Origin: a bacterium
GTDB taxonomy: Bacteria; Calditrichota; Calditrichia; RBG-13-44-9
Assembly: GCA_020350205.1 (NCBI GenBank)
Contig: CP070707.1
Location: forward strand, 3,163,563-3,227,562
Direction: 5' to 3'
Length of the DNA: 64,000 nucleotides
Part shown: one piece after another, positions 37,286-54,354 of the stretch
Position numbering within the stretch: the first letter of the stretch is position 1
Layout: each line of letters opens with the position of its first letter
The notes under the pieces: generated by a model
Told to the model about the DNA's origin: nothing
What the model saw: the letters and a program-made list of their open reading frames with translations, nothing else
Database searches by the model: none
Translations under genes and position numbers: made by a program

Positions 37286-38185
37286 ATGATTAAAAACTTT
37301 TCCCAACTTGTAAACCAGGTTAAGGCTTCACAAAATAATAAGATAGCAGTTGCAGTTGCTCAGGATGCAGATGTTTTAGAGGCCCTGGAAAAGGCGAGGA
37401 AGGCAGATCTTACTGATGCCATTCTGGTGGGGGATCGAAAAAAAATTGTTCGAATTGCCAGCATGAAGAAGATTGATATTAATCGGTATGAGATTATTCA
37501 TGTTGTGGAAGAGGAAATAGCTGTAAAAACAGCTGTGGATCTGGTTCGGAAGGGGAATGCGGATATATTAATGAAAGGGCTCTGTTCTACGGCCACTTTA
37601 ATGAAAGCAGTTTTGGACAAAACGGAAGGTCTGAGACGAACAGGACTTCTTTCACACCTGGCCATTTTTGAAATTAAAACCTATCCAAAACTCATTCTCA
37701 TGTCCGATGCCGCGTTGAATATTGCGCCAACTTTGGAGGAGAAAATTGCTATAATCGAAAATGCAGTTTCTGCAGCGCGTAAGTTGGATATTACAAATCC
37801 CAAGGTAGCCATGATTACTGCCGTGGAAAAGATCAATCCGGAAAAGATGCCTGCAACTGCAGATGCGGCTGTCATTGCGAAAATGGCCGAACGGGGTCAA
37901 ATTAAAGGTGCGGTTATTGATGGACCATTAGCACTGGACAATGCATTTTCCAAAAAATCGTGCGAAATCAAGGGGATTAAGTCAAGTGTTGGTGGACACA
38001 CGGATATTGCCATTGTTCCCAATATCGAGAGCGGAAATATATTCTATAAGCTGATGAGTTATCTCGCCGGCGCGAAAACCGCCGGTATCATAATAGGAGC
38101 AAAAGTCCCTATCGTGCTCACCTCACGGGCAGATTCTGATGAAACAAAATTTTTGTCCATTGCAGCCGCTGCGAAAGTATGCTGA
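37286..38185 (+). CDS. ptb: phosphate butyryltransferase
   Basis: Near-colinear similarity to clostridial Ptb (KIAVAVAQD...ILVGD, MKGL.STATL, SHLAIFE, NPKVAMITAVEKINPEKMP, DGPLALDNAFS, IVPNIESGNIFYK, VLTSRADS). Confidence 0.9.
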   Translation: MIKNFSQLVNQVKASQNNKIAVAVAQDADVLEALEKARKADLTDAILVGDRKKIVRIASMKKIDINRYEIIHVVEEEIAVKTAVDLVRKGNADILMKGLCSTATLMKAVLDKTEGLRRTGLLSHLAIFEIKTYPKLILMSDAALNIAPTLEEKIAIIENAVSAARKLDITNPKVAMITAVEKINPEKMPATADAAVIAKMAERGQIKGAVIDGPLALDNAFSKKSCEIKGIKSSVGGHTDIAIVPNIESGNIFYKLMSYLAGAKTAGIIIGAKVPIVLTSRADSDETKFLSIAAAAKVC

Positions 38186-38199
38186 GCAAAGGAATCGGT

Positions 38200-39273
38200 A
38201 TGAATCAACCTCACATTTTGGTGATTAATCCCGGATCAACCTCTACCAAAGTTTCGCTTTTTGAAGGCGAGACAGAATTATTCACATATGCCATTGAACA
38301 CAAATTAGAAGACCTGGCCAGATTTAACAAAGCTTCCGATCAGGATCTGTATCGTATGGAATTTATTATAAGCCATCTGCAGAAAGAAAAAGTTGATGTG
38401 AAACAGATCAAAGCTATTGTAGGTAGAGGCGGACTGTTGAAACCCATAGAGGGAGGGACCTACCGGGTGAATCAGGAAATGGTGGCTGATCTGAGGCGGG
38501 GTGTTCAGGGGGATCATCCCAGTAATTGCGGTGGTTTGATAGCGTATACACTATCTAAGAGTCTGGATTGTGAAGCGTTTATTGTTGACCCGGTGGTGGT
38601 GGACGAACTGCAGGATCTGGCACGTTTATCCGGAATGCCACTTATCCGGCGCCGCAGTATCTTCCATGCATTGAATCAAAAAGCGGTTGCCAGGCAGGCT
38701 GCACACCGCCTGAAAAAGAAATACCATGAAGTCAATGTAATTGTCGCGCATCTGGGAGGTGGCATTACCGTGGGAGCACATCAGCAGGGGAGGGTAATTG
38801 ATGTGAATAATGGCCTGGATGGGGATGGTCCCTACTCTCCGGAACGTTCCGGAGGGGTACCGGTGGGAGACCTGGTAAAAGCCTGTTTCTCTGGAGAGTA
38901 TACAATGGCTGATATGAAGAAACTTGTCACCGGTCACGGCGGGGTGGTGGCTTATCTGGGAACCCGGGATATGAAACAAGTTGAAGAACAGGTGAAGGCG
39001 GGTGACAAGGATTATCGCCAGATTTATGAGGGATTGGCATATCAGGTAGCAAAAGAAATCGGTGCGTGTGCGTGCGTTTTAAAAGGTGTAGTCGATGCGA
39101 TTTGCATTACCGGGGGATTAGCCTTTTCAGATATTTTAAATGACTGGATTGAAGACCGTGTGAAATGGATTGCCCCGGTGATGGTTTATCCCGGTGAAGA
39201 GGAGATGAAAGCGTTAGCTCTGGGCGCATTGCGGGTATTGGAGGGAGAAGAACTGGCGAAAACTTATTCTTAA
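38200..39273 (+). CDS. buk: butyrate kinase
   Basis: ILVINPGSTSTKVSLFEG N-terminal ASKHA motif, and HLGGGITVGA and ITGGLA motifs typical of Buk/acetate-kinase fold enzymes. It is coupled to ptb. The ORF is open from 38179, and the ATG at 38200 removes the overlap. Confidence 0.9.
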   Translation: MNQPHILVINPGSTSTKVSLFEGETELFTYAIEHKLEDLARFNKASDQDLYRMEFIISHLQKEKVDVKQIKAIVGRGGLLKPIEGGTYRVNQEMVADLRRGVQGDHPSNCGGLIAYTLSKSLDCEAFIVDPVVVDELQDLARLSGMPLIRRRSIFHALNQKAVARQAAHRLKKKYHEVNVIVAHLGGGITVGAHQQGRVIDVNNGLDGDGPYSPERSGGVPVGDLVKACFSGEYTMADMKKLVTGHGGVVAYLGTRDMKQVEEQVKAGDKDYRQIYEGLAYQVAKEIGACACVLKGVVDAICITGGLAFSDILNDWIEDRVKWIAPVMVYPGEEEMKALALGALRVLEGEELAKTYS

Positions 39274-39301
39274 TTTGTTTAAACCCTTTAGAGGAAAAGG
39301 T

Positions 39302-39517
39302 ATGGAAGTAACCATCAAAGTACCGGATATGACCTGTGATCATTGTAAAATGACTATAGATAAAGCACTTAAAGGTGTTGCCGGAGTGACGGAAGTTCAG
39401 GTACTGCTTACGGAACATTGGGTTAAGGTATCCGGAAAGTCGGAAGTAAATCGAGTAATTCAGGCTATTCAATCCGCAGGATATACGGCCGAGGAAATTG
39501 TAAATTTAAAGCCGTAA
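39302..39517 (+). CDS. heavy-metal-associated (HMA) domain metallochaperone, CopZ-like
   Basis: MTCDHC (GMxCxxC-type metal-binding loop) in a ~70-aa ferredoxin-like layout; GAGGAAAAGG RBS before ATG 39302. Confidence 0.8.
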   Translation: MEVTIKVPDMTCDHCKMTIDKALKGVAGVTEVQVLLTEHWVKVSGKSEVNRVIQAIQSAGYTAEEIVNLKP

Positions 39518-39582
39518 TCAGGTATGATTAAGTTAGATCAGTTTTTTAATTATTCATGTGAAAAATATCTTTACAGGAGTTT

Positions 39583-40758
39583 ATGATGTATCCCCGTATG
39601 ATGAATGAAAATATTTTTGCAGTGGGTGCGTTTGATTGGGATCGAACCTTATTTGATGCCCTGATTCCGCTTCCTTACGGAACTACCTACAACGCTTATT
39701 TGATAAAGGGATCAAAAAAAACCGTTCTTATAGACACAGTTGACCCTTCGAAGCTTGCCGTTTTAAAAAGGAATCTTAATAATTTGAATATTGATAGACT
39801 TGATTATATCATTTCGAATCATGCAGAGCAGGATCACTCCGGTTCAATTCCCGAAATACTGAATCTTTATCCTATGGCCAGACTGTTAACCGGTAAAAAG
39901 GGACAGGATATGCTGTTACCACTGCTGGATATTTCGCCGGAGAGAATTCAGGTTGTGGAAGACCGGGAGATCTTATCGTTAGGTGATAAAACGCTTCAGT
40001 TTATTTTTGCACCCTGGGTTCACTGGCCGGAAACCATGTTTACTTTTGCGGTCGAAGACAAAATTCTATTCAGCTGTGATCTGTTTGGTGCCCATCTGGC
40101 CAGCAGTGAATTATTTGCCTCAAAAAATGAAAACACTTTACAGGAGGCTAAGCGCTACTATGCAGAAATCATGATGCCTTACGGAGGGCGGATTGTCAAA
40201 CATCTGGAAACACTGCAAAATTATGACATAAAAACTATTGCACCCAGTCATGGACCGGTCTATGATCACCCGGAACAGATCATGAGCGCGTATCACGAAT
40301 GGGTAACCGGAGATCTTAAAAATGAAGTCGTAATTATTTATGTCACCATGCATGGCAGTACGGAACAGTTGGTCTTCAGATTGACAGATGAGTTAGTGAA
40401 GAGAAATATTTCAGTTACCCCATTTAACACAGTGACTGCGAGCCTGGGAGATCTGGCGCTTTCGCTGGTGGATGCAAAGACGGTAATCCTTGGGTCACCA
40501 GCCTATCTCATGGGTGCCCACCCCAACCTTATTTACGCGGCCTACTTGATTAATACTTTAAAACCCCGGACTCAAAATGTTGGAATTATAGGATCCTTCG
40601 GATGGGGAAATAAAATGGTAAATCAGTTGACTGATATGCTGAAAGATCTCACAGTCGAATATTTACCCCCCTTGCTAGTCAAGGGGAATCCCCGGCAACA
40701 GGATTATCTCGATCTCGTTGCTTTGGCAGAAAAAATTCAGCAGGTGCATCAATCGTGA
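39583..40758 (+). CDS. flavodiiron protein (FprA/ROO type: metallo-beta-lactamase-like diiron domain + flavodoxin domain)
   Basis: Diiron ligand motif HAEQDH, further H/D ligands downstream, and a C-terminal flavodoxin-like domain (VIIYVTMHGSTEQL); 391 aa. Confidence 0.8.
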   Translation: MMYPRMMNENIFAVGAFDWDRTLFDALIPLPYGTTYNAYLIKGSKKTVLIDTVDPSKLAVLKRNLNNLNIDRLDYIISNHAEQDHSGSIPEILNLYPMARLLTGKKGQDMLLPLLDISPERIQVVEDREILSLGDKTLQFIFAPWVHWPETMFTFAVEDKILFSCDLFGAHLASSELFASKNENTLQEAKRYYAEIMMPYGGRIVKHLETLQNYDIKTIAPSHGPVYDHPEQIMSAYHEWVTGDLKNEVVIIYVTMHGSTEQLVFRLTDELVKRNISVTPFNTVTASLGDLALSLVDAKTVILGSPAYLMGAHPNLIYAAYLINTLKPRTQNVGIIGSFGWGNKMVNQLTDMLKDLTVEYLPPLLVKGNPRQQDYLDLVALAEKIQQVHQS

Positions 40759-40790
40759 TTGATAAAACCTTATTTGGAAAGGAGATAAAT

Positions 40791-42137
40791 ATGGCATCAA
40801 CAAAAATTGTCCTCTGTATAGTATTTTTCTTGGTGGCATATTCCCACTCTCAGGATCTTCCAGCAGGTGAAGAGGCTTTGGGTACTAAAAAGTATGAACA
40901 GTATGAAAGTCCGACTGTTTGTAAGAGCTGCCATGATAATTTCTATGAGCAATGGAAACAGGCTATGATGTCTCAGGCTTATACTCATCACTGGGATGAG
41001 ATTGAATACTTTAAATTGGCCGTTCCCCATGCAGAGAAGGATGAAAAGGTTGCCGGAGTTAAAGCGGGATGTAACGGTTGTCATGCTCCCATGGCTTTCA
41101 TGGCCGGTATAGTTCCCCCACCTAAACCAGAAGAAAATACGCGTGCGAATGAATCAGTTGCTTGTGATATCTGCCATACGATAATAGGATTTAAAGGAGA
41201 TATTCCTCATAATTTTAATTACATCTCGAATCCAGGAAGAACGAAATACGGTCCGAAACCAGGACTCTCCTCTCCACATCATGATACAGAGTATAACGAA
41301 TTTATTACTCAGTCAGAATTCTGTGGAACCTGTCATAATGAAATGAGTCCTTATGGGGTGTGGGTCAAAGCGACGCAGCTTGAATGGAAAGAGGGACCAT
41401 ATGCCAAAGAGGGAGTCCCCTGCCATCAATGTCATATGCCCAAGGCCAAAGGAAAGAATGCCAAAATGGCTAAGGAAGATATCGTTGCACAACATTTGTT
41501 CCATGGCGCCCATGACCCTGGGAAATTGGCCAGTGCTATTGAATTGAGAATGAATCCTCTGGAAAGAGAAGTCCCCTATGATGGAGTAGTATCTCTCAAT
41601 GTTCAACTTTTCAGTGCTAAACCGGGACACAAGTTCCCGACGGGCTCGGTTGAGGATCGAATTGTCTGGTTACATGTAACCGCAACTGATGCCGAAGGAA
41701 AAAGCTACCACCTGCCGGTGGACAAAAAAAGTTTTGCAGGTGAGGAATATACCATAGCGTCGGATGTATTGGCCTACCAGGATATGGGGATCGCATTGAA
41801 TGATCCCAATTTTCCCGGTGTGCAGCGGGATGGGGTGCCTATTGGGGACCGTATCTTCCGGATGCCTTATTTCGACCCGCAGGGCCGGATGACAATTCAA
41901 CAATGGAATACTAAATCTTTTGGAGTGGATTATCGGATCGGTCCCCGTGAGACGAAAATCGAAACTTTTACCTGGCAGTTACCTGATGATATAGCCCTTG
42001 GAAAAGTACATTTCACCGCAGAATTGAATTATAGCAAACTTGTTAAGCCAGTGGCTGACTTTTTAAAGGTTCCTGCAGAAGAAAGTGAAACGATATTAAT
42101 AAACAAGACAAATACCTGGGTTGAAGTATACGACTAA
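40791..42137 (+). CDS. periplasmic pentaheme c-type cytochrome with ~225-aa non-heme C-terminal domain
   Basis: AAGGAG RBS before ATG 40791. Signal peptide MASTKIVLCIVFFLVAYSHSQ. Five CxxCH motifs (CKSCH, CNGCH, CDICH, CGTCH, CHQCH) lie in the first ~235 residues; the remainder has no heme motif. There is no CxxCK, so it is not a canonical NrfA. Confidence 0.8.
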   Translation: MASTKIVLCIVFFLVAYSHSQDLPAGEEALGTKKYEQYESPTVCKSCHDNFYEQWKQAMMSQAYTHHWDEIEYFKLAVPHAEKDEKVAGVKAGCNGCHAPMAFMAGIVPPPKPEENTRANESVACDICHTIIGFKGDIPHNFNYISNPGRTKYGPKPGLSSPHHDTEYNEFITQSEFCGTCHNEMSPYGVWVKATQLEWKEGPYAKEGVPCHQCHMPKAKGKNAKMAKEDIVAQHLFHGAHDPGKLASAIELRMNPLEREVPYDGVVSLNVQLFSAKPGHKFPTGSVEDRIVWLHVTATDAEGKSYHLPVDKKSFAGEEYTIASDVLAYQDMGIALNDPNFPGVQRDGVPIGDRIFRMPYFDPQGRMTIQQWNTKSFGVDYRIGPRETKIETFTWQLPDDIALGKVHFTAELNYSKLVKPVADFLKVPAEESETILINKTNTWVEVYD

Positions 42138-42150
42138 AAGGAGAAATACC

Positions 42151-43377
42151 ATGCTCAAAAACTTTATTTATATTTTAATATTGATCGTTACTATTTTATT
42201 CATAGCATTGTTTCCGGAGGATGCAGAAGCCATCCCGGCTTTTGCCCGCAAATATAAAGTATCCTGTACTACCTGCCATGCTCCAATACCTAAACTAAAA
42301 CCCTATGGGGCAGAGTTTGCCGGCAACGGCTTTGTGATTCCCGAGGAAGAAAAAGAACGTGACTATATTACTGCAGGTGATAGTCTGCTCTGGCTTAACA
42401 GGAATTTTCCGATTGCCGTGAGATTTGATGCCTATGGGGTATATGATGATAAGGCACCCGTAGAAAACGATTTACAGCTTCCCTGGGGAGTGAAATTGCT
42501 TTCCGGCGGAAATTTGTATAAAAACATAGGGTATTATTTCTATTTTTACCTTTCAGAAAGGGGAGAGGTCGCCGGCATTGAGGATGCCTATATCCACTTT
42601 AATAATATATTTAATACCAATCTTGATGTGATGGTCGGTCAGTTTCAAACCTCCGACCCCCTGCTGAAAAGGGAATTACGTCTTACCTTTGAGGATTATA
42701 CCTTCTATACCAAACGGGTCGGTTTCTCGAAAATCAATCTAACCTACGATCGTGGTATCATGATGCCCTATACAATCGATAAAACCGGTACCGACCTGGT
42801 ATTCTTGGTGGTTAATGGTGCTGGAATCGGGGATGCCGGGGAGGATCGTAAATTTGATGATGATAAATTTAAAAATTATGGATTTAGAATCAACCAGGCT
42901 GTTGGTGAGTTTGCCAGTATCGGCGCTTTTATTTATTACGGAAGAGAGAGGGTTACAGATACTCTGGGTGTCAATGATAATGAAGTGACCTACATTGGCC
43001 CAGATGTCAATTTGACCGTAGGTAAATTCGAACTTACCGGACAGTACCTGTTACGTAAGGATACGAATCCATTGTTTATACCCAGTGCAGAGTCGAAGAA
43101 CACCTCCGCAATCATTGCTGAGATTATCTTTGCTCCTAAAAAAGAACGCTCCCGTTACTACTTCACATTCTTATATAACTGGGTAGATTCTGATCTCAAA
43201 GAAGAGGATTTTGCACCTCTCGCTCCTTATTTTGAATTCAATTCCCTGCAATATCATACCGCGACCTTGAACTGGACTTACGAGTTGGCGCGGAATCTAC
43301 GTTTTCTGGTGGAATTAACCCGGGATATTGAGCTGGAAGCGAACCGTGGGGTTCTGGGAATAGTCAGTGCGTTCTAG
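42151..43377 (+). CDS. outer-membrane beta-barrel protein with single N-terminal CxxCH heme motif (Cyc2-like fused cytochrome-porin candidate)
   Basis: AAAGGAG RBS immediately after the upstream stop, with ATG at 42151. Signal peptide MLKNFIYILILIVTILFIALF. The mature N-terminus is AFARKYKVSCTTCHAPIPKLKPYG, with one CTTCH. The ~360-aa rest shows an alternating amphipathic beta-strand pattern and ends ...LGIVSAF (terminal Phe). Confidence 0.6.
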   Translation: MLKNFIYILILIVTILFIALFPEDAEAIPAFARKYKVSCTTCHAPIPKLKPYGAEFAGNGFVIPEEEKERDYITAGDSLLWLNRNFPIAVRFDAYGVYDDKAPVENDLQLPWGVKLLSGGNLYKNIGYYFYFYLSERGEVAGIEDAYIHFNNIFNTNLDVMVGQFQTSDPLLKRELRLTFEDYTFYTKRVGFSKINLTYDRGIMMPYTIDKTGTDLVFLVVNGAGIGDAGEDRKFDDDKFKNYGFRINQAVGEFASIGAFIYYGRERVTDTLGVNDNEVTYIGPDVNLTVGKFELTGQYLLRKDTNPLFIPSAESKNTSAIIAEIIFAPKKERSRYYFTFLYNWVDSDLKEEDFAPLAPYFEFNSLQYHTATLNWTYELARNLRFLVELTRDIELEANRGVLGIVSAF

Positions 43378-43656
43378 TCGATAGCATGGATTATCAGAGA
43401 ATGGGTTAGGAGCTTTACGGAATCTGGAAGCAGTTGTGAACATTGAATATTTAAGATATAAATCTCTTAAGGTTGTATGATGTGAAGCCTCCGAATTAAT
43501 TCGGGGGCTTTCATTAGAGGAAAATCCCGGCCTGGCTCTAGAAAAATCCAATCCCCTCATATAAAGTGTAACCCAAATTCACCTTTAGCATCTTATATTA
43601 CATATATATCTACAAAAACACCCATACAGTAAGATTTCCGGAGGATAAGTTTTAAC

Positions 43657-44673
43657 ATGAAAAGATTTTTATTAATTCTTATATCTACTGCAATTACCTC
43701 GAATGCCTGGGCCCAGAACGATTCATTGCTATTTGACAACAATATTGTGATTGTAGGAGAAATAAAAAATCTGAATCGAGGGATTATTACCATTGAAACA
43801 GAGTTCAGTGACAGCGACTTCAAAATTGAATGGAATAAAGTAAAAGAAATTTATGGTACCCAGGAATATATTATTACGTTATCCGATGGAAATCGTTTAA
43901 AAGGTTCCATATCGACCGATCCCTCCGAAAAGTCAAAAGTAATAATTAGTGATGCTTATCAGACTTTGGCTGTTAGCTTGAATAACGTGGTTTTCATGAA
44001 ACCATTGGAAGAAGGATTCCTGCAAAAATTGAGTGCCTCAGTGGATCTGGGATTCAATTTAACCAAAGCCAATAATTTAAGACAGCTATCTCTGCGCAGT
44101 AAGGTTGGCTATTTGACCAACAGATGGAGTACCGATGGATTTCTGGATATTACGCGCAGTGACCAGGACAGTATTGCTGCCACCCGGAGAACGGATGCTT
44201 CGGTGGGATTTAACTACTTCCTGGGGAAACGATGGTTTGCTTTTATTTCATCAAAGTTTCTGCAAAGCGATGAGCAGAAACTGGAACTCAGGGCGACTCC
44301 GCTAATCGGTATCGGAAATTATTTCATCCAAACCAATTCAATGTATTGGGCACTTGTGGGGGGTATTGCCAGAACGATTGAGTTTTATACCGATCCGACT
44401 ATCGAAGACAGGAGCAGCAGCGAAGCAAATTTGGGAACCGAGTTAAACTTGTTCGATATGGGTGATTTAGGTTTGGTGACGACTTTGGCGGTCTATAGAA
44501 GTCTCAATGAAGGGGACCGAATTAGGGCTGACTTTAAGTTCGATATCAAATACGATCTTCCACTCGATTTTTATATCAGACTCGGCTATACTCATAATTT
44601 CGACAATCAACCGGTGGAAGGCGCTTCCCGAAACGACTGGGATTTATCGATGACTTTTGGGTGGGAACTGTGA
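43657..44673 (+). CDS. outer-membrane beta-barrel protein (DUF481/YdiY-like)
   Basis: Signal peptide ISTAITSNAWAQ, a ~100-aa N-terminal globular region and then alternating-polarity strands through to the C-terminus. Similarity to DUF481 is by pattern only. Confidence 0.4.
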   Translation: MKRFLLILISTAITSNAWAQNDSLLFDNNIVIVGEIKNLNRGIITIETEFSDSDFKIEWNKVKEIYGTQEYIITLSDGNRLKGSISTDPSEKSKVIISDAYQTLAVSLNNVVFMKPLEEGFLQKLSASVDLGFNLTKANNLRQLSLRSKVGYLTNRWSTDGFLDITRSDQDSIAATRRTDASVGFNYFLGKRWFAFISSKFLQSDEQKLELRATPLIGIGNYFIQTNSMYWALVGGIARTIEFYTDPTIEDRSSSEANLGTELNLFDMGDLGLVTTLAVYRSLNEGDRIRADFKFDIKYDLPLDFYIRLGYTHNFDNQPVEGASRNDWDLSMTFGWEL

Positions 44674-44906
44674 TTATCGGAAACCGTAAGATAACCTGAA
44701 ATCCTGTCTGTGACCGCCTGAGTTTCCAGCAATTGTAAACCACTATATGCTCATCTCTCCGAAACTGAAAGAGCAAGGCTCTCTGGTGTTTCGAAGTTTG
44801 AATTTATGATTTTTTGAATAGGGTTAACAAAAATAGTTGCTATATCCAATTAGGCTCAGTATTATATTTATCTATTATTATTCCTTACATATGATGGAGG
44901 TCCATT

Positions 44907-46265
44907 TTGAAAAAAATATTACTGTTCATTTTGATTTTCCTAATGACGGTTGAGCTTTCTCTTGCACAGGATAATCCTGAGGAACCGTCAGATCCTGTGG
45001 CACCCAAACGGATAGATTTAGCAATTGCTGAAGTGATGGCCAGTAATTTTGTAGCCTGGGCCGGTGCCCGTTATCTTCGGGAGGATAATTACTCTTTTTT
45101 GATCAGCTGGCAATCGGTTGAGGACAATCTCCGCCATGGTCTGGAGTGGGATCCCAATAATTTTGGCACAAATTTTCTTAACCACCCCTATCAGGGCAGT
45201 ACCTATTTTAATGCTGCCCGGACTAATGGTATGAGTTTCTGGGAATCAACCCCCTTTACTTTCGCAGGAAGTTACATGTGGGAAGTCTTTATGGAGCGCG
45301 AATATCCCGCCTACAATGACCTGGTTACCACCACCTGGGGAGGCGTGGCCCTGGGGGAGATATTGTTTCGATTTTCTGAAAATGTATTGGATGACCGCGC
45401 CCGGGGAGGTTCGCGGGTCTGGCGTGAGACGGCCGGCTTTTTGTTAAACCCAGTGGGTGGAGTTAATCGTATTATCAAAGGTGATATGTTCACGACCAGA
45501 TCTTCGGTTAATCATATTAGACGACCCTTCAATGGTTACATCGCGGTCGGTGGGCGTGGTAACCTGGAAGGATCGGATGCTGAAGATAGTAGATTAAGTC
45601 CCTCGTTTCAACTGACCGGTCATTATGGTAAGCCGTTCGAACCCAAATCAAAAATTAAGCCGTATGATTTCTTTGCCTTCCGTTTATGGACCAGTAAGCG
45701 AGATACCTTGAGAAGCACCGTGATTACTGCCTGGGGTACCCTGTTTGGTAAGCAATATGACAGGGAGAATGGGCAGAAACACCTGCTGAGTATTTCCCAG
45801 AATTATGACTATTATAATGCTCAGATTTTCACGATCGGGGCTATGGCTTTTACGACCAATCTATTGTCAAATTGGCCGCTGGGAAAAGGATTCCGCCTGA
45901 TTACGAATCCTGCACTGGGATTTATTGCATTGGGAGCGGGTAATAATGAATACGTAACCTCCTATCAGGGTCGAAATTATAATTTTGGCTGGGGGGCGCG
46001 TGGTAAATTTGAGTTCCTGGTTGAACATCAAAAGTTCGGCAGGATTCTGGGAGATTACAATTATTTCAGTCTCTATACCCGGGAAGGTGCACCGGGTGTA
46101 GACCGATTACATGTCTTTGATGTCAATTACATGATTAAGATATGGCGGCAACTGGGTATTGGAGTTGAGTATTTCTATTATTACCGAAATGCCCATTATA
46201 AAAATGATCCTGACGTCAGAAAGCACCTGAAAGGATTGAGAGGTCTCTTCTCTCTGGAATTTTAA
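44907..46265 (+). CDS. DUF3943-family secreted/outer-membrane protein
   Basis: Signal peptide, then W..DNLRHGLEWDPNNFGTNFLNHPYQGSTYFNAAR; the N..HPY.G..YF core is the DUF3943 signature seen in Bacteroidota-group proteins. The C-terminus is beta-rich and ends SLEF. Confidence 0.55.
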   Translation: MKKILLFILIFLMTVELSLAQDNPEEPSDPVAPKRIDLAIAEVMASNFVAWAGARYLREDNYSFLISWQSVEDNLRHGLEWDPNNFGTNFLNHPYQGSTYFNAARTNGMSFWESTPFTFAGSYMWEVFMEREYPAYNDLVTTTWGGVALGEILFRFSENVLDDRARGGSRVWRETAGFLLNPVGGVNRIIKGDMFTTRSSVNHIRRPFNGYIAVGGRGNLEGSDAEDSRLSPSFQLTGHYGKPFEPKSKIKPYDFFAFRLWTSKRDTLRSTVITAWGTLFGKQYDRENGQKHLLSISQNYDYYNAQIFTIGAMAFTTNLLSNWPLGKGFRLITNPALGFIALGAGNNEYVTSYQGRNYNFGWGARGKFEFLVEHQKFGRILGDYNYFSLYTREGAPGVDRLHVFDVNYMIKIWRQLGIGVEYFYYYRNAHYKNDPDVRKHLKGLRGLFSLEF

Positions 46266-46295
46266 AAGATTTATCAATCAAAAAAGAGGACTATC

Positions 46296-46931
46296 ATGAA
46301 AGCATATCTTTTTATTATAATCACTATCATTCTGATGATCTCTTCTCGGGCGATCTCACAACGGGTAGAAATTGCATTAATGACCGGTTATCAGATGGGA
46401 GGTATACTGGATGAGACCACGCAACAGGAGGGGATTTTCACCCCGGGTGACGCACTGGGTCTCACCGCTTCGGGTAATTTCGGAGTCATGCTTGATATCC
46501 GTTTGGCAAAGAAAGCGTTCCTGGAACTTTCAATAGACCGCCAGCCGACCAACCTGAATTATCATGAAGCTCCGGATGGAGAAATTTCCCGCTCTATGAA
46601 AATTAATGTAGATTATTACCAGGCAGGTATTATCTATGACTGGTCCTCCAGCTATCTTCGACCTTTTTTTGGATTGGCGATTGGTCTGGTACATTTGGCA
46701 CCGGATGAAAATCTGGATAGCGAGACACGACTAAACTTCTCCCCTTTAATGGTCGGCGTCAAAACCTATGCCAGTAAATATTTCGCTTTTCGGTTACATG
46801 CCCGTCTGCTGATCAGCGATGCTCCTGAAAAAATCTATTTTAAGGATACGGACGGAGAAGGTTTCTATCATGAAAAAAGTACCTTTATGACCCAGATACA
46901 GTTTGGGGTGGGCATGGTGCTGTCACTTTAG
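46296..46931 (+). CDS. small outer-membrane beta-barrel protein (OmpA-like barrel/porin-family fold)
   Basis: 211 aa with a signal peptide and eight or more amphipathic beta strands of alternating hydrophobicity. Confidence 0.45.
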   Translation: MKAYLFIIITIILMISSRAISQRVEIALMTGYQMGGILDETTQQEGIFTPGDALGLTASGNFGVMLDIRLAKKAFLELSIDRQPTNLNYHEAPDGEISRSMKINVDYYQAGIIYDWSSSYLRPFFGLAIGLVHLAPDENLDSETRLNFSPLMVGVKTYASKYFAFRLHARLLISDAPEKIYFKDTDGEGFYHEKSTFMTQIQFGVGMVLSL

Positions 46932-47212: not shown

Positions 47213-50200
47213 ATGCGCATTTATTTTATTCTTCTGCTTATTCTCACCTATTTTGCCCAGGCCCAGGAAGTTCTTCCGCCCAGTGATGGCGGTTTCACAA
47301 AATCTATGGGGCAACCTCAGATATACAAACCGTACATCGGTTTTTCGCTGGGACACAGTTATCCGGCGGTGGATGATAAATTAATTGCCCAGTTCAGGTT
47401 AGGCGTGTACCGGGATTTAATGAATCCCATGTACAGTGTACTGGGTATTTCCGCGGAAGGGTATATAGGGAGTCTTCGCACTAATGAAGATTTTGGATTC
47501 CGGGCGATGATTGAAATGCCTGCATTACGACTGGCAGGCGGACTTGATTACAATTATGAAGTTGAGCGTCTTGATTTTATCCTTCGGATAACAGCTGCGG
47601 TGAGGCGGGGAGGTATTTTTGGAAGGGGGACTGACCTGCGCCTTGAATGGTTACCGGCGCGAGGAAATACCTATAATCTGGGAATCGGAATACCTATTTT
47701 CCAACCTAATCGCGGAAAAACCCGCCCTAAAAGGGACTATGTCAGACTCACAGCCCCTAAACCACCACAAATTCCGAAGGTGCCTGGTATTCCGGCCTTG
47801 GAGGAAGCTCTCAATAATATCCGTGAAAGTGCCCGCTGGATTAATCGGCTTACCACACCCTATTATGATTATGCAGGGGCCGATCCCTTTGCCGCGATTG
47901 CTGACTCCATGAAAGCACTAAAAAAACATTTGAATTCCCGTAATATCAATTTCCCGAATGGCAGGAACAGTGAAGCAGAGGTTCGCTTTTTCCATCAGGA
48001 ACTGGAGCGCGCATTTTCAATGGCAATTTTGGGCGAGTCGCTGGTGATGGGAGAGTCGGTTAATGAGGGTAGAGAGGTTGCGGCACAGGCAAGAAATATT
48101 ATTCTGGAGAGAATATTATATCCCTATAACCGTTTACTTGGTCAGAAAAAAAATAGTGATTCCATATTGGAGTTTGCCAAAACAGCCCGCGGTAAGATGG
48201 CTCGCTGGATGACACAATCTGATGTAATTCCACCTGAAAGAATTGATGCAGTCCGTTATGTATTCCAGGAAATTATAGCAATTATCGAAGAAAATCGTGC
48301 CTATTCAGCCAAAATCTGGAAGGATTCCAGACTGGTATGGCTTCCCCTGCAATATGCGCTTCTCCCAGAGCAGCATGACAGTCAGCAAGAGCTGGATAAA
48401 ATTATTGAGGGTGCCACCGGTCAGCGATTTACTGAGGGGAATAAAATCTGGTATATCATTAATGAAGAGTTTCAATATGAGGTGGCTCGACAGATCCATG
48501 CTGCCCGTGACTATCATATATTATGGATTCATGATATTGATGCGTTTGATGCGGGTGGAGACCCCGACACACTTACTTTTCTGCAGATCAAGGATTCCTA
48601 TTTTCAGGCTATGATAGACCGAATCAGAGAATATGACGATACCGGCAAACTTCCCGTTTTTATGATTTTTCTGGATCAGTTTTTTTATCAGGCCAATAAA
48701 ACTCGAACCTGGATGAGGTTGTTAGAAAAACCCCTGACCTATAGTCTCAAGTTATCCGACAAATCCATGGAACAAGCGCTGACGGAAAAACTGACAGAAC
48801 TGCGCCGAGCAATCAATAGGTCGAAACTGTTGCAGGCGGAGATTCAGGAATACGGGGAAGAATGGCTGCATAACCTGATAAAGGTCCACGTGAATATTAC
48901 CAATCCGGCGGATATCTCATTCTGGAGCAGGGGTATCCTTCCCATACTTGGAACCCCCGATCTGATTTCCCGGGATCATCGCAAAATATCATTTTATGAC
49001 GTTTCGGAGGAGGATCCTTACCAGGGTGTCATGATGATTGGGGGTATGGGTATCGGAGAACATTATGCTGGCCCAACCTGGGATGACCGCGGTATACTCG
49101 TCCAGGGTCCTGCCGCACTTGATTTAAAATATGCGGCCAGGCAACTTCTGCTGGATCAAGGATTTGAAGAACAGGAAATTCCCTATCCGTTGCAAATAAG
49201 ATCTAAAGCGAGTGATTATGCAAGGGCGGTGCAGGATACAATTCGAGTCTGGAGTAAAAAAGGATTCACCCTGGCAAAAGTAAAGCAATTACATAATCAA
49301 ACCGGTTATCATCCCAAAATGGTCAGCGTTGCCAATGCAGTGATGTATTCATTAATGCCCCGGCGAACCTTTCAGATTATTCCGGATAGTTTATGGGATA
49401 GTGATTTCTGGTTGGCCATTCTTCTCGGTAATTCTTTACGGGGAGGCTGGATAAGCATTCAGGCACCGGCTCTGGAAAATGCTCCCAGTGCCGGTTTTCC
49501 TCAAATGTCCCGAACCCAGGAGTTGTTGGCCCGGCATGTAGTGATCCAGGAGATATTGTCAGAAGAGATTGAAGCAGCAGGGGGAATGTTCAGAGCAACA
49601 TTATACAACCCGGATGAGGATGTGGCCGATTTTGCCGGACAACTGAAAGAGTTTAAACATCGTTTCGAGAGTGACAAAAATTTACAGGAACTTTTTCCAT
49701 TTCATCCTTCCATATACCGTATGTTGGACAGTATGATCCAGGTATTAAGTGAACAGCAAATCGCTTATCTGTCCTCTGACGCCGTGGTGAGAAAACCAAA
49801 ACTCCACGCAAAAATTAATTTGTTCGCTTCTCTGGATGTGGTCCGTGATTTATTGATCATGCCTGAGTTTGCCTCGGTTTTCAAGTCTTATATACTGCAG
49901 CGAGTTGCTCAGGCCACAGAATATGGAGAAGTCGGAAATGTCAGGGAAAAAGCAGAGAAATTTTTACAGGTAGCCAGAGACTGGGTTATAAAATATCGGG
50001 ATAATACACCCCAGGAGGACCTGGAAAAGTTGGTATTTTATTTTAAAGTGGGAACCATGAATCAGAATTATCGCAGTAAAGTGTTCGATGGAGAAGCGGT
50101 GGTATTAATATCGGGGGTCTATAGTATTTATGGTTTAATGGATATGATTTTCCGAATCGGTTTAACCACACCGATAGAAGACCTGGAAACTTTAGAGAAA

Positions 50201-50263
50201 CATCTTCCCCAGTATGGGGGTACGAAAAGAGCTATTGGTCGCTGGATTCGAACCACACTCTAG
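47213..50263 (+). CDS. large secreted protein of unknown function (1016 aa)
   Basis: Signal peptide MRIYFILLLILTYFAQAQ, then a beta-rich first ~170 aa and a ~840-aa mixed alpha/beta remainder. I recognised no confident family. A weak PLD-like pair (HAKINLFASLD ... GTMNQNYRS) has non-canonical spacing. Confidence 0.6.
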   Translation: MRIYFILLLILTYFAQAQEVLPPSDGGFTKSMGQPQIYKPYIGFSLGHSYPAVDDKLIAQFRLGVYRDLMNPMYSVLGISAEGYIGSLRTNEDFGFRAMIEMPALRLAGGLDYNYEVERLDFILRITAAVRRGGIFGRGTDLRLEWLPARGNTYNLGIGIPIFQPNRGKTRPKRDYVRLTAPKPPQIPKVPGIPALEEALNNIRESARWINRLTTPYYDYAGADPFAAIADSMKALKKHLNSRNINFPNGRNSEAEVRFFHQELERAFSMAILGESLVMGESVNEGREVAAQARNIILERILYPYNRLLGQKKNSDSILEFAKTARGKMARWMTQSDVIPPERIDAVRYVFQEIIAIIEENRAYSAKIWKDSRLVWLPLQYALLPEQHDSQQELDKIIEGATGQRFTEGNKIWYIINEEFQYEVARQIHAARDYHILWIHDIDAFDAGGDPDTLTFLQIKDSYFQAMIDRIREYDDTGKLPVFMIFLDQFFYQANKTRTWMRLLEKPLTYSLKLSDKSMEQALTEKLTELRRAINRSKLLQAEIQEYGEEWLHNLIKVHVNITNPADISFWSRGILPILGTPDLISRDHRKISFYDVSEEDPYQGVMMIGGMGIGEHYAGPTWDDRGILVQGPAALDLKYAARQLLLDQGFEEQEIPYPLQIRSKASDYARAVQDTIRVWSKKGFTLAKVKQLHNQTGYHPKMVSVANAVMYSLMPRRTFQIIPDSLWDSDFWLAILLGNSLRGGWISIQAPALENAPSAGFPQMSRTQELLARHVVIQEILSEEIEAAGGMFRATLYNPDEDVADFAGQLKEFKHRFESDKNLQELFPFHPSIYRMLDSMIQVLSEQQIAYLSSDAVVRKPKLHAKINLFASLDVVRDLLIMPEFASVFKSYILQRVAQATEYGEVGNVREKAEKFLQVARDWVIKYRDNTPQEDLEKLVFYFKVGTMNQNYRSKVFDGEAVVLISGVYSIYGLMDMIFRIGLTTPIEDLETLEKHLPQYGGTKRAIGRWIRTTL

Positions 50264-50630
50264 AAAAACCTTTCACTAATAAATCAGTAATTCGACATGG
50301 ATATTAGACACGGGAGACAGGAGACCGGATAACAGGGTGATTGAAATGGTTTTTTTAAATGTTGAACCTGAGCTAATTTCAGTTTAATAAAATGGTATCT
50401 TTTTAGAATAATATCATCCTGAATAAGCCATATTGTCTTCTCCCGTCGGGGACACAGTCAGAGAACATGCTGGTAATAAGCAGACGACAGGACTTATTTC
50501 CTTCGGAACAATAATTGCCTGATAAATTTTTGGATCTGCGAAAATCTGTTTTTTTCTTCGTCAACTGTGTCCTATTTTACACTCCCAAAATTTTCATTTA
50601 ATTCGGTTTCACGAATACTTGAGGAATAAT

Positions 50631-51356
50631 GTGAATGATAATAAAGTTGCCTTAATCACCGGAGCCAGTCGCGGAATTGGTCGAGCCATCGCCCTGAAAT
50701 TTGCAAAAGAGGGAATAGCAGTGGCACTGACCGCCAGGGATGAATCGCAAATGAAAAACGTGTCCGATGAAATATCTGCGTTGGGAGGAATTCAGCCCCT
50801 GGAAATTCCGGCGGATCTGCGAGATATCTCTCAGATTCCTGCCATTTCAAAACGGGTAATCAATGAATGGGGCCGGATCGATATTCTGGTGAATAATGCA
50901 GGGCTGGGATATTTAAAACCTTTTCTGGAAATCAAGCCTGAAGAATTTCAGGAAATGCTGGATGTCAATCTGCGAGCCTTGTTTTTGCTGACTCAGGATG
51001 TTCTTCCCCATATGATTGAAAGGAGAACCGGAAATATTGTGAATATTGCTTCATTGGCAGGTAAAAATGGCTTTAAAACCGGAACCGGTTATGCAGCCAC
51101 CAAATGGGCCTTGAGAGGTTTTGCCCAGTGTCTGATGTTAGAGGTTCGCGAATATGATATAAGGGTAATCACAATTTTTCCGGGATCCGTTGAAACAGGA
51201 TTTGGCAGCGGTGGTGTGTCTCCGACCGGTACCCCCAGTCAGAATAAGATTCAGTCTGTCGACATCGCGGAGACCGTCTATCTGGCAGTAAATATGCCAG
51301 ACCGCACCATGCTGAGTGAGATTGATATGCGTCCCAGTAATCCGGCAAAAAAATAG
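50631..51356 (+). CDS. short-chain dehydrogenase/reductase (SDR) family oxidoreductase
   Basis: TGASRGIGRAIA cofactor motif, NNAG, and catalytic S...YAATKWA (YxxxK). The ORF is open from TTG 50619; GTG 50631 follows a GAGGA RBS. Confidence 0.8.
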   Translation: MNDNKVALITGASRGIGRAIALKFAKEGIAVALTARDESQMKNVSDEISALGGIQPLEIPADLRDISQIPAISKRVINEWGRIDILVNNAGLGYLKPFLEIKPEEFQEMLDVNLRALFLLTQDVLPHMIERRTGNIVNIASLAGKNGFKTGTGYAATKWALRGFAQCLMLEVREYDIRVITIFPGSVETGFGSGGVSPTGTPSQNKIQSVDIAETVYLAVNMPDRTMLSEIDMRPSNPAKK

Positions 51357-51478
51357 CTTTGGAGGCGGTCTGATTTTTTGATTTGCGGAAGGTTTAGTAA
51401 ATGTAAGTATGTACTTTGTTATTCATATGAGAAAAGCACCCGAGAACACCAGGAACGAAAAGAAATAAGGAGGCTAGC

Positions 51479-51934
51479 ATGTTAAAAGTAGGTGATAAAG
51501 CACCCGATTTTAAAGTACTCTCGGATCAGGGGAAAGAGGTAACTTTATCTCAGTTCCTTGGAAAAAAAGATGTGATCCTTTATTTTTATCCCAAAGATAA
51601 TACCAGCGGCTGTACCAAGGAAGCTTGTTCCTTTCGGGATAATATGCCCCGGTTTGACACCAAAAAGGCCGTGGTCTTGGGAGTAAGTCCCGATAGTGTT
51701 AAATCTCATCAGGGTTTTATCCAGAAGCAAAATCTCAATTTCAATCTGTTAAGCGATCCCGAACATAAAGTGGCGGAAGCCTATGGTGCCTGGGGTGAAA
51801 AAAGTATGTATGGGAAAAAATACATGGGTATTTTACGCTCTACTTTTATTATCGGCAAAGACGGAACCATTAAAAAAGTCTATGAAAAGGTAAAACCGGA
51901 GGGGCATGCCGAGGAAGTTTTACAGGCGCTGTAA
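51479..51934 (+). CDS. bcp: thiol peroxidase Bcp (peroxiredoxin Q type)
   Basis: LYFYPKDNTSGCTKEACSFRDN with peroxidatic and resolving Cys in GCT...C arrangement; 151 aa; AAGGAGG RBS. Confidence 0.85.
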   Translation: MLKVGDKAPDFKVLSDQGKEVTLSQFLGKKDVILYFYPKDNTSGCTKEACSFRDNMPRFDTKKAVVLGVSPDSVKSHQGFIQKQNLNFNLLSDPEHKVAEAYGAWGEKSMYGKKYMGILRSTFIIGKDGTIKKVYEKVKPEGHAEEVLQAL

Positions 51935-52088
51935 AATTCCTTTCACAGTTTATACCCGTACTTTAATTATTCAGTTGTGGATGCAGGTCGGGTTATTGCT
52001 GTATACTGTAGGCAGTTCAGTTAGCATGAACTAATTTAGAAATTTATTTATTAATTCCAATTTTGTACCAATTAAGAGTGTTTCAGGA

Positions 52089-52826
52089 GTGACCAAGAAA
52101 TCAGACAGTGAGATGTTATCGATTGTCAGGGGGAAAATCAAAGAGGGGGCAAATTCCGAGCTCTCGCTTACCCGTCCCTTTGTATCCCTCTCCTTTGCTC
52201 AAAGCCTGGATGGGAGTATCTCTCTGCATCCTTCAGCCCCGGTCAGATTAAGCAATATTCATTCGCAAAGTTTTACGCACAGTTTACGTGCCATCCATAA
52301 TTCGATTCTCATCGGTATCGGTACCCTTCTTGCTGACGATCCCCAGCTTACTGTACGTCTGGTTTCGGGGGAAGATCCTATACCGGTAGTGGTGGATAGC
52401 CATCTTCGTTTTCCGACTCATTCCAAGCTGTTGCGGAAAAACACGATCAAACCATGGATCGCCTGCACGTCTGAAATAAGTGATGGGAAAGTTGACATTA
52501 TCCAGAAAAGTGGTGGAGAGATAATTCCCTTGCCGGCTTTATCCAATGGATGGGTCAATTTATCTTCGCTGATGCAACATCTTCATGATAGAGGTATTCG
52601 CTCGGTGATGGTTGAGGGGGGTGCCCGTATTATCACCAGTTTTTTACGGGAGAGACTGGCGGACCAGATTATTCTGACGATTGTCCCGATGATTCTGGGG
52701 GGATTTCGGGGAGTGCGGGAGCTTGAAAACATCGTCTCCCCCTTTATTACAAATCTTAAAAATATAAATTATGAACTGATCCAGGATAATCTGATTGTCC
52801 GGGGTGATCTTAATTATCAGGTATGA
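52089..52826 (+). CDS. stand-alone RibD C-terminal-type (DHFR-fold) pyrimidine reductase
   Basis: RPFVSLSFAQSLDGSIS matches the RibG/RibD reductase-domain N-terminal consensus (P.V.LK.A.SLDG.I); Rossmann-like remainder (MVEGGARI). No deaminase domain is present. It uses a GTG start. Confidence 0.6.
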   Translation: MTKKSDSEMLSIVRGKIKEGANSELSLTRPFVSLSFAQSLDGSISLHPSAPVRLSNIHSQSFTHSLRAIHNSILIGIGTLLADDPQLTVRLVSGEDPIPVVVDSHLRFPTHSKLLRKNTIKPWIACTSEISDGKVDIIQKSGGEIIPLPALSNGWVNLSSLMQHLHDRGIRSVMVEGGARIITSFLRERLADQIILTIVPMILGGFRGVRELENIVSPFITNLKNINYELIQDNLIVRGDLNYQV

Positions 52827-53875
52827 TGAAAACCCAGAAACTTTTTTTTGAAAAAAAGAAGACCATTGTAATTCACGAGGAAAGATTGGGATCTCCGGGT
52901 CCCGGGCAGGTCCTGGTTGAGGCGAAGTATTCAGCAATCAGTACCGGTTCCGAAATGGTATTGTTCCGCGGTGATTTCCCGGAGGGGATGACCACTGATA
53001 TGTCGCTCAATTCCCTGGCAGGAGTCATGAAATACCCGCTTTCTTATGGTTATGCACTGGTGGGGAAGGTTATTGAAATTGGAAAAAATACAGATCCGGA
53101 ATGGCTGGATAAAAGTGTCTTTTTGTTTCATCCGCATCAGTCATATATCGTGGTTCCTCAGACCGAACTTTTCCTCATCCCTCCGGATCTCAATGAGAAA
53201 AATGCGTTATTTCTTCCCAATATGGAAACTGCCATCGGATGTGTTATGGATGCGGCGCCGCTTCTGGGAGAAAATGTTGTCATTTTTGGACAGGGAGTCG
53301 TGGGTCTTCTGACAACATCCGTGCTGGCAAAATATCCCTTGAATCGGCTAGTTGCGGTAGATCCGTTGGAGAAAAGAAGGATAACCGCAAAAAATATCGG
53401 GGCGAATGCTGTATTCGATCCAGGAGATAAAAATTTTTTTGACGAAATTCACGATATGTTTCGTTCGAAGACACATCTAACAGATCAGCAAAGTGGTCCT
53501 GATCTCATATTTGAAATGTCCGGAAATCCAGAGGTTTTAAATACGGCTATTTCTATTGCCGGTTATCATAGCCGTATTATCGTTGGATCTTGGTATGGAA
53601 CGAAAACCGCCCATTTGAACCTGGGTGATAGATTTCATCGGAATCGGCTGCGGATTATCAGCAGCCAGGTGAGTACCATTCAGCCAGACTTACGGGGACG
53701 CTGGAATAAGGAAAGGCGGATGGAATTGGTATGGTCATGGTTGAAGCAGGTCACTCCTTCGAGATTGATTACCCATTACATTCCATTTTCCGAGGCACAA
53801 TCTGCTTATGCCTTGTTGGATGAACAGCCGGAGCAAGCCTTACAGGTTGTTTTGACATATGAAGGGAGAACCTAG
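52823..53875 (+). CDS. medium-chain dehydrogenase/reductase (MDR) family oxidoreductase, non-classical Zn site
   Basis: GroES-like N-domain, then GYALVGKV in place of the GHE..G motif, and Rossmann VVIFGQGVVGLL. It overlaps the upstream gene by 4 bp and abuts the next. Confidence 0.65.
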   Translation: MMKTQKLFFEKKKTIVIHEERLGSPGPGQVLVEAKYSAISTGSEMVLFRGDFPEGMTTDMSLNSLAGVMKYPLSYGYALVGKVIEIGKNTDPEWLDKSVFLFHPHQSYIVVPQTELFLIPPDLNEKNALFLPNMETAIGCVMDAAPLLGENVVIFGQGVVGLLTTSVLAKYPLNRLVAVDPLEKRRITAKNIGANAVFDPGDKNFFDEIHDMFRSKTHLTDQQSGPDLIFEMSGNPEVLNTAISIAGYHSRIIVGSWYGTKTAHLNLGDRFHRNRLRIISSQVSTIQPDLRGRWNKERRMELVWSWLKQVTPSRLITHYIPFSEAQSAYALLDEQPEQALQVVLTYEGRT

Positions 53876-54252: not shown

Positions 54253-54354
54253 ATAGGTATTTTCCCGGCTATTTATGTCTGAGCAAATGATGATGTTTCC
54301 TTAGATATATGAATGTTTATGCATGTCTGTTTATAATTTTAAGATATAATCAAA

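Follow-up and report, generated by a model that had tools for sequence, protein, structure and literature searches.

In a 64,000-nucleotide stretch of a bacterial genome (contig CP070707.1 of assembly GCA_020350205.1, forward-strand positions 3,163,563 to 3,227,562), referred to below as the window, we identified a gene at 42151-43377 that encodes a member of the Cyc2 family of fused monohaem cytochrome-porins. It lies directly behind a gene for a periplasmic pentahaem c-type cytochrome, and this two-gene linkage is conserved across several phyla. The features of the pair are as follows.

40791..42137, + strand: periplasmic pentahaem c-type cytochrome, 448 residues, the conserved partner (five CxxCH motifs; Pfam Cytochrome_C554, 6e-8)
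42138..42150, + strand: 13-nucleotide intergenic spacer with an AAGGAG ribosome-binding site (read from the sequence)
42151..43377, + strand: Cyc2-family fused monohaem cytochrome-porin of an FCB-type subfamily, 408 residues (ATG at 42151 to TAG at 43375-43377)
42151..42231, + strand: signal peptide, residues 1-27, with predicted cleavage between AEA and IP (read by eye)
42229..42297, + strand: Cyc2 signature, comprising A27-I-P-A-F-A-R-K-Y35, C39-T-T-C-H43 (predicted haem attachment) and P47-K-L49 (motif definition of PMC8406198)
42412..43371, + strand: 16-strand beta-barrel, residues 88-407, with the C-terminal end VSAF (AlphaFold2 model)

Membership of the Cyc2 family

Cyc2 proteins have been defined by a signal peptide, one CxxCH motif, the sequences AxPxFAR[Q/K][T/Y] and PxL, a length of at least 365 residues and a 16-strand porin resembling OprO and OprP (Keffer 2021, PMC8406198), and the AxPxFAR[Q/K][T/Y] element just ahead of CxxCH has been described as unique to the family (PMC8406198). 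The product of 42151-43377, at 408 residues, is longer than this minimum. It begins MLKNFIYILILIVTILFIALFPEDAEA and continues beyond the predicted cleavage site with IPAFARKYKVSCTTCHAPIPKLKPYG, giving a mature N-terminus of IPAF. Judged by eye and from an alignment, residues 1-27 show the n, h and c regions expected in a Sec signal peptide, with K3 in the n-region, a 17-residue hydrophobic core and the AEA/IP site, consistent with the cleavable signal peptide proposed in an initial annotation of this DNA; across 25 aligned homologues the N-termini are variable but hydrophobic, and conservation sets in from A27. The only two cysteines of the protein both fall inside C39TTCH43, leaving a single CxxCH in the context AFARKYKVSCTTCHAPIPKLKPYG, and the C-terminal residue is the Phe of VSAF. 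The single CxxCH, its context and the VSAF end had likewise been correctly annotated, except that the first haem cysteine lies about 12 residues into the mature chain and not about 20.

The sequence A27-I-P-A-F-A-R-K-Y35 matches the Cyc2 motif exactly and ends three residues before C39; most members of the subfamily read FARRY, a slight deviation with R at the [Q/K] position. In H43-A-P-I-P47-K-L49, the PxL element begins at the fourth residue past the haem histidine, an offset found in 63 of 94 full-length Cyc2-motif genome proteins among the matches listed. An alignment-based AlphaFold2 model (predicted template modelling score 0.70) contains 16 long strands within residues 88-407, with a predicted local distance difference test score (pLDDT) of mostly 70-90 over the barrel, and its top Foldseek matches were exclusively 16-strand porins, including OprO and, among the best, OprP. 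The expectation of an outer-membrane barrel of about 16 strands is thereby borne out in the model. The haem segment (residues 20-77) was modelled with a pLDDT below 50, which does not settle whether it plugs or caps the barrel. Scans of Pfam and NCBIfam recovered no family for this protein, the only match being a sub-threshold one to SlpA_C (16.6 bits), and comparison of the family profile with PDB sequences gave no relevant match.

Reference sequences were obtained by scanning one genome per species with a degenerate DNA pattern for the back-translated PxFAR[QK][TY]xxxCxxCH. This gave at least 119 loci (numbered with the prefix L), so that the taxa represent a sample, and the references are Cyc2-motif open reading frames (ORFs) from genomes of iron-oxidiser taxa, not biochemically studied proteins. 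They include Mariprofundus and other Zetaproteobacteria, Sideroxydans, Gallionellaceae and Acidithiobacillus, alongside Melioribacteraceae, a metagenome-assembled genome (MAG) assigned to Ignavibacterium album and the isolate Marinilabilia salmonicolor MSL42. Among the matches listed by BLASTP, the target protein shares 40-55% identity with a set made up of FCB-type and Gemmatimonadota sequences plus a few others, and there is a clear gap between the bit-scores inside this subfamily (at least 223) and those outside it (at most 142). Beyond the gap, the target matched proteins of Mariprofundus (L009; E 5e-15, 22.5% identity over 457 alignment columns), Acidithiobacillus (L031; 8e-10) and Sideroxydans (L092; 3e-8).

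Profile comparisons with hhalign aligned the subfamily over its full length with a group containing the Mariprofundus L009 sequence, Nitrospira and Krumholzibacteria (99.9%, E 7e-31, 360 columns), over residues 1-127 with the Zetaproteobacteria/Gallionellaceae type (98.2%, E 5e-14) and over residues 17-164 with the Acidithiobacillus type (98.3%, E 2e-14). The recognised Cyc2 groups score comparably against one another, which fits the published observation that conservation in Cyc2 covers the cytochrome part and does not extend to the porin, the clusters being 17-23% identical to one another. By motif, homology and fold, the target gene is thus a true member of the Cyc2 family, as initially annotated, with an exact signature and homology by both BLASTP and hhalign to Cyc2-motif proteins of recognised iron oxidisers.

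Within the family, Zetaproteobacteria have been reported to carry both Cluster 1 and Cluster 3 Cyc2 genes, and the matched Mariprofundus sequence differs from the Cluster 1 type; the nearest relatives of the subfamily are therefore probably of the Cluster 3 type. Cluster 3, which includes Leptospirillum Cyt572, Zetaproteobacteria Cluster 3 proteins and a protein of Tenderia electrophaga, is the best-supported placement, through full-length profile homology to the group with the Mariprofundus homologue, to which we assign the Cluster 3 label indirectly. The subfamily differs from it in the bit-score gap, in its own barrel motifs and in its pentahaem partner. Published surveys also place most Cyc2-like sequences of uncultured phyla, including these FCB lineages, in cluster III.

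The pentahaem partner and its linkage to the Cyc2-like gene

The partner at 40791-42137 carries its own signal peptide and, as initially described, five haem motifs (CKSCH, CNGCH, CDICH, CGTCH and CHQCH). A start at GTG 40755, as given in the ORF list, would overlap the stop codon of the preceding flavodiiron gene; homologues align from ATG 40791, which we therefore prefer. The gene ends with TAA at 42135-42137 and is followed at 42138-43 by AAGGAG, 7 nucleotides ahead of the ATG of the Cyc2-like gene, so the ribosome-binding site does lie within the 13 bp after the pentahaem stop, where it had been proposed. Similarly tight spacing, from -34 to about +120 nucleotides, occurs in most related loci.

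Among PDB entries the partner is closest, though distantly related, to 5ze8, pentahaem c552 from Thermochromatium tepidum (E 9e-7 when its sequence was searched singly and 5e-11 when a profile was used). The two proteins (448 and 435 residues) have five haem motifs in the same order and full-length collinear similarity, in three stretches spanning residues 24-437 of the partner; the AlphaFold2 model of the partner (pLDDT 44) was too poor to confirm a c552-like fold. We also found a match to the NCBIfam model ExtKL/MccSep (NF040886) at 48 bits, the cut-off being 250. ExtKL, now named MccSep, is a periplasmic pentahaem polysulfide reductase of Geobacter with a haem cap and an Ig-like stem, and the paper describing it used c552 as structural comparator. 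Its activity requires a haem-ligating Cys239 (the distal Cys of haem 2) and Sec325, and the Cys and the Sec/Cys are strictly conserved. The partner resembles MccSep in its five haem motifs, its 448 residues comparing with about 49 kDa, but it lacks the haem-ligating Cys and the Sec/Cys, there being no cysteines outside its five haem motifs and signal peptide. Thus, we rejected an enzyme of the MccSep type, given also the score far below the NF040886 cut-off. At least eight non-motif histidines of the partner are invariant, and it is more likely, from its sequence, to be an all-bis-His electron carrier. Its C-terminal non-haem domain is also strongly conserved, the loops GHKFPTGSVEDR, FRMPYFDPQGRMT, RIFRMPYFDPQGRMT and DYRIGPRETK (residues about 279-290 and 354-389) being near-invariant across phyla. 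We know of no Cyc2-like neighbour of c552 or MccSep genes.

A multihaem cytochrome of about 447 residues was found directly upstream of the Cyc2-like gene in four phyla in which the other neighbours are unrelated. We counted the linkage in 104 subfamily loci, of which assemblies supplied 6, species genomes 18 and a metagenome scan 80. A pentahaem homologue adjoins the Cyc2-like gene in 98 of these. When the count is confined to the 73 loci having 1300 bp or more of upstream sequence, the homologue precedes the Cyc2-like gene in the same orientation in 71, and one of the remaining two has the pair in reverse order. Ignavibacteria and Kapabacteria partners (L099:1804-3153, L038:4379-5731 and L018:5187-6545) that appeared to have four haems are pentahaem as well, since their first site is a CX3CH (CGASCH, CGSSCH and CGTSCH, respectively) that a CxxCH count misses. 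The reverse order is seen in the metagenome contig L205 (Ga0209426_1000254), with the Cyc2-like gene first and the pentahaem gene 16 nucleotides downstream. A further locus, L171, has an odd gene layout.

At cyc2 loci outside the subfamily, we found no neighbour with four or more CxxCH motifs among the matches listed. Many of these loci have instead a dihaem ORF of 200-330 residues downstream, in the classical cyc2-cyc1 order, as in Acidithiobacillus L031 (213 residues, 2 haem motifs). A Gemmatimonadota/Longimicrobiales branch (L029, L037, L020, L056 and L010; 41-46% identity to the target) lacks the upstream pentahaem gene, and three of its members (L037, L020 and L056) have downstream a 128-145-residue ORF with one CxxCH, which may be an alternative partner.

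A word-indexed search recovered at least 3800 homologues of the target protein, one of them identical and encoded on a MAG contig of 4.06 Mb, and all annotated "hypothetical", with named relatives in KSB1, Latescibacterota, Eisenbacteria and Calditrichia. A profile search of 1.84 billion cluster representatives gave 2554 matches at E<=1e-3 and 146 at E<=1e-30, each standing for a cluster at 50% identity. In 25 homologues (56-88% identity), A27, P29, F31, R33, C39, C42, H43, P47 and L49 are invariant, and the N-terminal Cyc2 signature is preserved in distant full-length matches as well. Exactly one CxxCH was found in 162 of 163 full-length homologues (119/119 close and 43/44 distant), the lone deviating sequence appearing frameshifted, so that the haem motif proves conserved among homologues, a point on which the initial annotation had made its own validity depend. 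The barrel bears motifs specific to the subfamily (GYYFYFY, EDA[YFW] and GQFQTSDP); EDA[YFW] occurs in 22 of the 94 full-length Cyc2-motif genome proteins among the matches listed. One homologue, 55% identical to the target, is in a MAG labelled Dive96 (L107), like the MAGs of PMC9769843, and apparently comes from a survey that called Cyc2 genes.

The subfamily is common among sediment bacteria, with members in Calditrichota, KSB1, Latescibacterota, Eisenbacteria, Ignavibacteria, Bacteroidales and others. The target and its partner are, respectively, 57-65% and 70-77% identical to their counterparts in other phyla. The Der GTPase of the window is closest to Calditrichota, in keeping with the FCB-group host initially proposed, and shares 75% identity with a Calditrichaeota MAG and 60% with Caldithrix abyssi. 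Since the identity of the cassette proteins across phyla equals that of Der within Calditrichota, the sequences suggest that the cassette has spread horizontally, or is under strong constraint that would be unusual for a porin, or both.

The initial annotation had considered such a pair no textbook feature of this lineage. For Cyc2 itself this is dated, as surveys of the FeGenie/Lithogenie type have reported Cyc2 homologues in Calditrichota, KSB1, Eisenbacteria, Krumholzibacteriota, Bacteroidota and Ignavibacteriaceae (PMC9769843, PMC10732223, PMC7914226, PMC6344600). The occurrence of Cyc2 in the lineage is thus not new, and it is the pentahaem pairing that is less ordinary. In a literature search, with most subscription journals outside its reach, we found no description of a pentahaem pairing with Cyc2 or of the subfamily as a unit, and a Melioribacter multi-omics paper and a 2025 paper on the "recent origin of iron oxidation" make no mention of the pair or the lineages.

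Proposed electron transfer by the pair: direction and substrate

Further known systems provide comparisons for the pair. The target resembles Cluster 1 Cyc2 proteins (PV-1, Mariprofundus ferrooxydans; Gallionellaceae) in its signal peptide, motif-flanked single CxxCH, length near 400 residues and 16-strand OprP/OprO-like barrel. It differs from them in that homology extends over target residues 1-127 only, the barrel sequences being unrelated at the profile level, and in that its subfamily occurs in organotrophs, with an upstream pentahaem gene; Fe(II) oxidation has been shown for the Cyc2 of PV-1 and is a prediction by analogy for the subfamily. With the Cluster 2 Cyc2 of Acidithiobacillus ferrooxidans it shares a fused monohaem cytochrome-porin beside a gene for a periplasmic c-type cytochrome. 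In the rus operon of that species, however, cyc2 is followed by the dihaem cyc1, whereas in the window the pentahaem gene (448 residues) precedes the cyc2-like gene, with no rusticyanin or cox genes nearby. The MtrAB, MtoAB and PioAB systems and the Geobacter porin-cytochrome complex (Pcc) likewise have adjacent genes for an outer-membrane barrel and a periplasmic multihaem cytochrome, with presumed electron transfer across the outer membrane. In contrast to the target, in which a modelled barrel of 16 strands is joined to a haem motif in the same chain, their barrels have 20-26 strands, are haem-free and surround a wire of 8-10 haems. A five-haem globular partner cannot thread through a 16-strand barrel, which rules out an inserted wire of the MtrAB kind.

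By analogy with the characterised Cyc2 proteins, we infer a possible route for electrons that includes haem attachment, outer-membrane location, interaction with the partner, substrate and direction of flow. The precursor would be exported by Sec, one haem would be bound covalently through C39 and C42, H43 serving as its axial ligand, and the C-terminal 320 residues would form a 16-strand barrel in the outer membrane, with the small haem segment at or inside its periplasmic mouth. Because a 16-strand pore is too narrow for a multihaem protein, the single haem would exchange electrons with a dissolved redox species within the pore or at its opening, most likely Fe2+ to judge from the characterised Cyc2 proteins. 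Electrons would then pass from this haem to the co-transcribed, soluble, c552-like pentahaem cytochrome, which would ferry them across the periplasm to some inner-membrane partner, in the place that the dihaem Cyc1 occupies beside classical cyc2. We rank this Fe(II)-oxidising conduit first among the readings of the pair, and consider it about equally liable to prove right or wrong.

The genes upstream of the pair, which bear on its physiological setting, are as follows.

37286..38185, + strand: ptb
38179..39273, + strand: buk
39275..39517, + strand: HMA-domain metallochaperone-like protein (Pfam HMA, 2e-15)
39583..40758, + strand: flavodiiron-type protein (Pfam ODP, 2.5e-25, with weak flavodoxin matches; NCBIfam NorV-like at 219 bits, below the cut-off)

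The ODP and HMA matches are in keeping with the flavodiiron protein and copper chaperone that had been annotated upstream of the pair. From ptb to the cyc2-like gene (37286-43377) all six genes run in the + direction and are separated by no more than 66 bp, and the ptb-buk fermentation pair may be co-transcribed with the redox cassette. A scan of 39000-44000 for sigma-70 promoters and terminators gave background levels, and no Rfam families were found in the window. The order HMA-flavodiiron-pentahaem-cyc2 recurs in another Calditrichia genome (63% identity) and in close relatives. A flavodiiron gene is in the same position in L006, L127 and L200, and an HMA gene in L006 and L127, both being common to some relatives only. 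The conserved neighbour of the Cyc2-like gene is thus the pentahaem gene and not the flavodiiron or HMA gene, and beyond it the cassette stands alone.

Several observations weigh against an Fe(II)-oxidising role. The context in the window is fermentative (ptb-buk, malic enzyme and the flavodiiron protein), with no terminal oxidase or nitrate reductase, so that an energy-yielding chain for Fe(II) oxidation is not visible there. For the subfamily itself, a role with Fe(II) is a prediction by analogy. Homology to the biochemically supported Cluster 1 and 2 types is limited to the N-terminal 130-165 residues, and the haem segment falls in the part of the model with low confidence. A simple relay also leaves unexplained the strong conservation of the barrel motifs GYYFYFY, EDAY and GQFQTSDP and of the C-terminal domain of the partner. 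The c552 of 5ZE8, the closest solved relative of the partner, is presumably a low-potential cytochrome, which would suit an outward flow at least equally. Finally, the nearest Cyc2 relatives of the target probably belong to Cluster 3, and it is this cluster that the Cyc2 authors rate as the most uncertain in function (PMC8406198). For a host that appears fermentative and oxygen-defending, Fe(II) oxidation would more plausibly serve detoxification or mixotrophy than lithoautotrophy.

The same architecture might instead operate in reverse, with electrons passing from the quinol pool via the pentahaem protein and then the haem-bearing pore to an acceptor dissolved outside the cell. Chelated Fe(III), Mn or humic quinones might accept them, as might O2 or peroxide at the surface of the cell. 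The cassette would in that case be a minimal conduit for electron export or redox defence in anaerobic heterotrophs, and no iron oxidase. We regard this as a serious competitor, if a doubtful one. It would accord with hosts that are mostly organotrophs, with the fermentative window and its O2/NO-detoxifying flavodiiron-type gene directly upstream, and with the recurrence of that gene order in the second Calditrichia genome. It would accord too with the fold family of the partner, c552 and MccSep, which we take to perform low-potential, reductive chemistry. About 14 of 105 loci (the window, L001, L006, L090, L127, L130, L132-L134, L137, L145, L147, L169 and L200) have a gene for peroxiredoxin (AhpC), flavodiiron protein, rubrerythrin or thioredoxin no more than 10 kb from the cassette, and 4 have one for photolyase; as a raw count without a control, this hints at a connection with oxidant stress, but it concerns a minority of loci. 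Similarly, Cyc2-carrying Ignavibacteriaceae have been described as Fe(III)-reducing taxa (PMC6344600), but Ignavibacteria already have a porin-cytochrome system of the Geobacter type for Fe(III) reduction. Moreover, all biochemically studied proteins of the Cyc2 family oxidise Fe(II), and the related Tenderia protein has been implicated in the uptake of electrons from a cathode, which argue for the inward direction.

A role for the pentahaem protein as an enzyme, comparable to the MccSep polysulfide reductase, with the barrel as a channel or accessory redox site for a small inorganic substrate, is improbable. Geobacter extKL is clustered with a porin-like gene (ExtHIJKL), the partner has five haem motifs in common with MccSep together with the weak match to NF040886, and its collinear similarity to c552 suggests the same cap-plus-Ig-like layout. 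The conservation of GHKFPTGSVEDR, FRMPYFDPQGRMT and DYRIGPRETK in its C-terminal domain is striking and, speculatively, its TGS loop corresponds to the D-G-Sec-P active-site loop of MccSep (D-G-U-P), with Ser replacing Sec. Against this, the cysteine and Sec/Cys essential in MccSep are absent, the NF040886 score is far below its cut-off, the invariant non-motif histidines are enough for bis-His ligation of five haems, and a plain substrate channel would not need a barrel with a conserved haem motif of its own. Least probable by far is an ordinary nutrient porin or a channel for haem or iron uptake, in which the CxxCH would be structural or regulatory and the pentahaem adjacency meaningless. 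The barrel is indeed structurally nearest to anion and general-diffusion porins, and no Pfam or NCBIfam model recognises the protein. The Cyc2-specific motif, however, is invariant, and the pentahaem linkage of 71 out of 73 loci is seen in several phyla and amid otherwise unrelated flanking genes. The identity of 57-77% that both proteins show between phyla argues for co-selection for a specific joint function.

These readings differ in what they imply for Cyc2, which serves more widely than any other gene as a marker of microbial iron oxidation. Most Cyc2 homologues of non-proteobacterial heterotrophs have no assigned role, and the calls of "iron oxidiser" made with this marker for Calditrichota, KSB1, Latescibacterota and similar lineages are based on family membership only. 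If the conventional reading of the pair as an Fe(II)-oxidising conduit is right, the subfamily simply adds a further Cyc2, distinguished by the protein that accepts its electrons. A broader proposal, which we judge unlikely, is that the cassette is a self-contained, horizontally spread two-protein conduit of anaerobic or facultative FCB-type heterotrophs, working outwards or in both directions, either in electron export or in a surface redox defence co-regulated with flavodiiron proteins and peroxiredoxins. Were this true, a large share of marker-based cyc2 "iron oxidase" calls in MAGs from sediments and vents would be functionally mis-assigned, and the Cyc2 fold would be a general minimal electron gate and not an Fe(II) oxidase. 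We have here one large, tightly conserved subfamily of thousands of sequences, carried by the cultured Marinilabilia salmonicolor and by the MAG assigned to Ignavibacterium album; together with the partner and the cultured carriers, it makes the role of Cluster 3-like Cyc2 proteins in organotrophs experimentally approachable.

Downstream genes and wider synteny

Downstream of the cyc2-like gene we identified a run of predicted outer-membrane proteins at 43657-46931, consisting of a DUF481 protein (43657-44673), a DUF3943 protein (44907-46265) and a 211-residue ORF without a family. Homologues of the DUF481 and/or DUF3943 genes are downstream in the closest relatives only (L126-L128), so that these genes are probably outside the module. 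Two long ORFs of the window, at 47213-50263 (1016 residues) and 26925-28631 (568 residues), have no significant Pfam match, the best for the first being a sub-threshold one to YaaA (E 0.049). Further downstream, genes for a short-chain dehydrogenase, a zinc-type alcohol dehydrogenase and a GT1 glycosyltransferase at 50619-55383 occur in the same order at L006:4726-10945. This indicates a wider synteny with the Calditrichia contig L006, which is broken in the window by the outer-membrane genes and the 1016-residue ORF.

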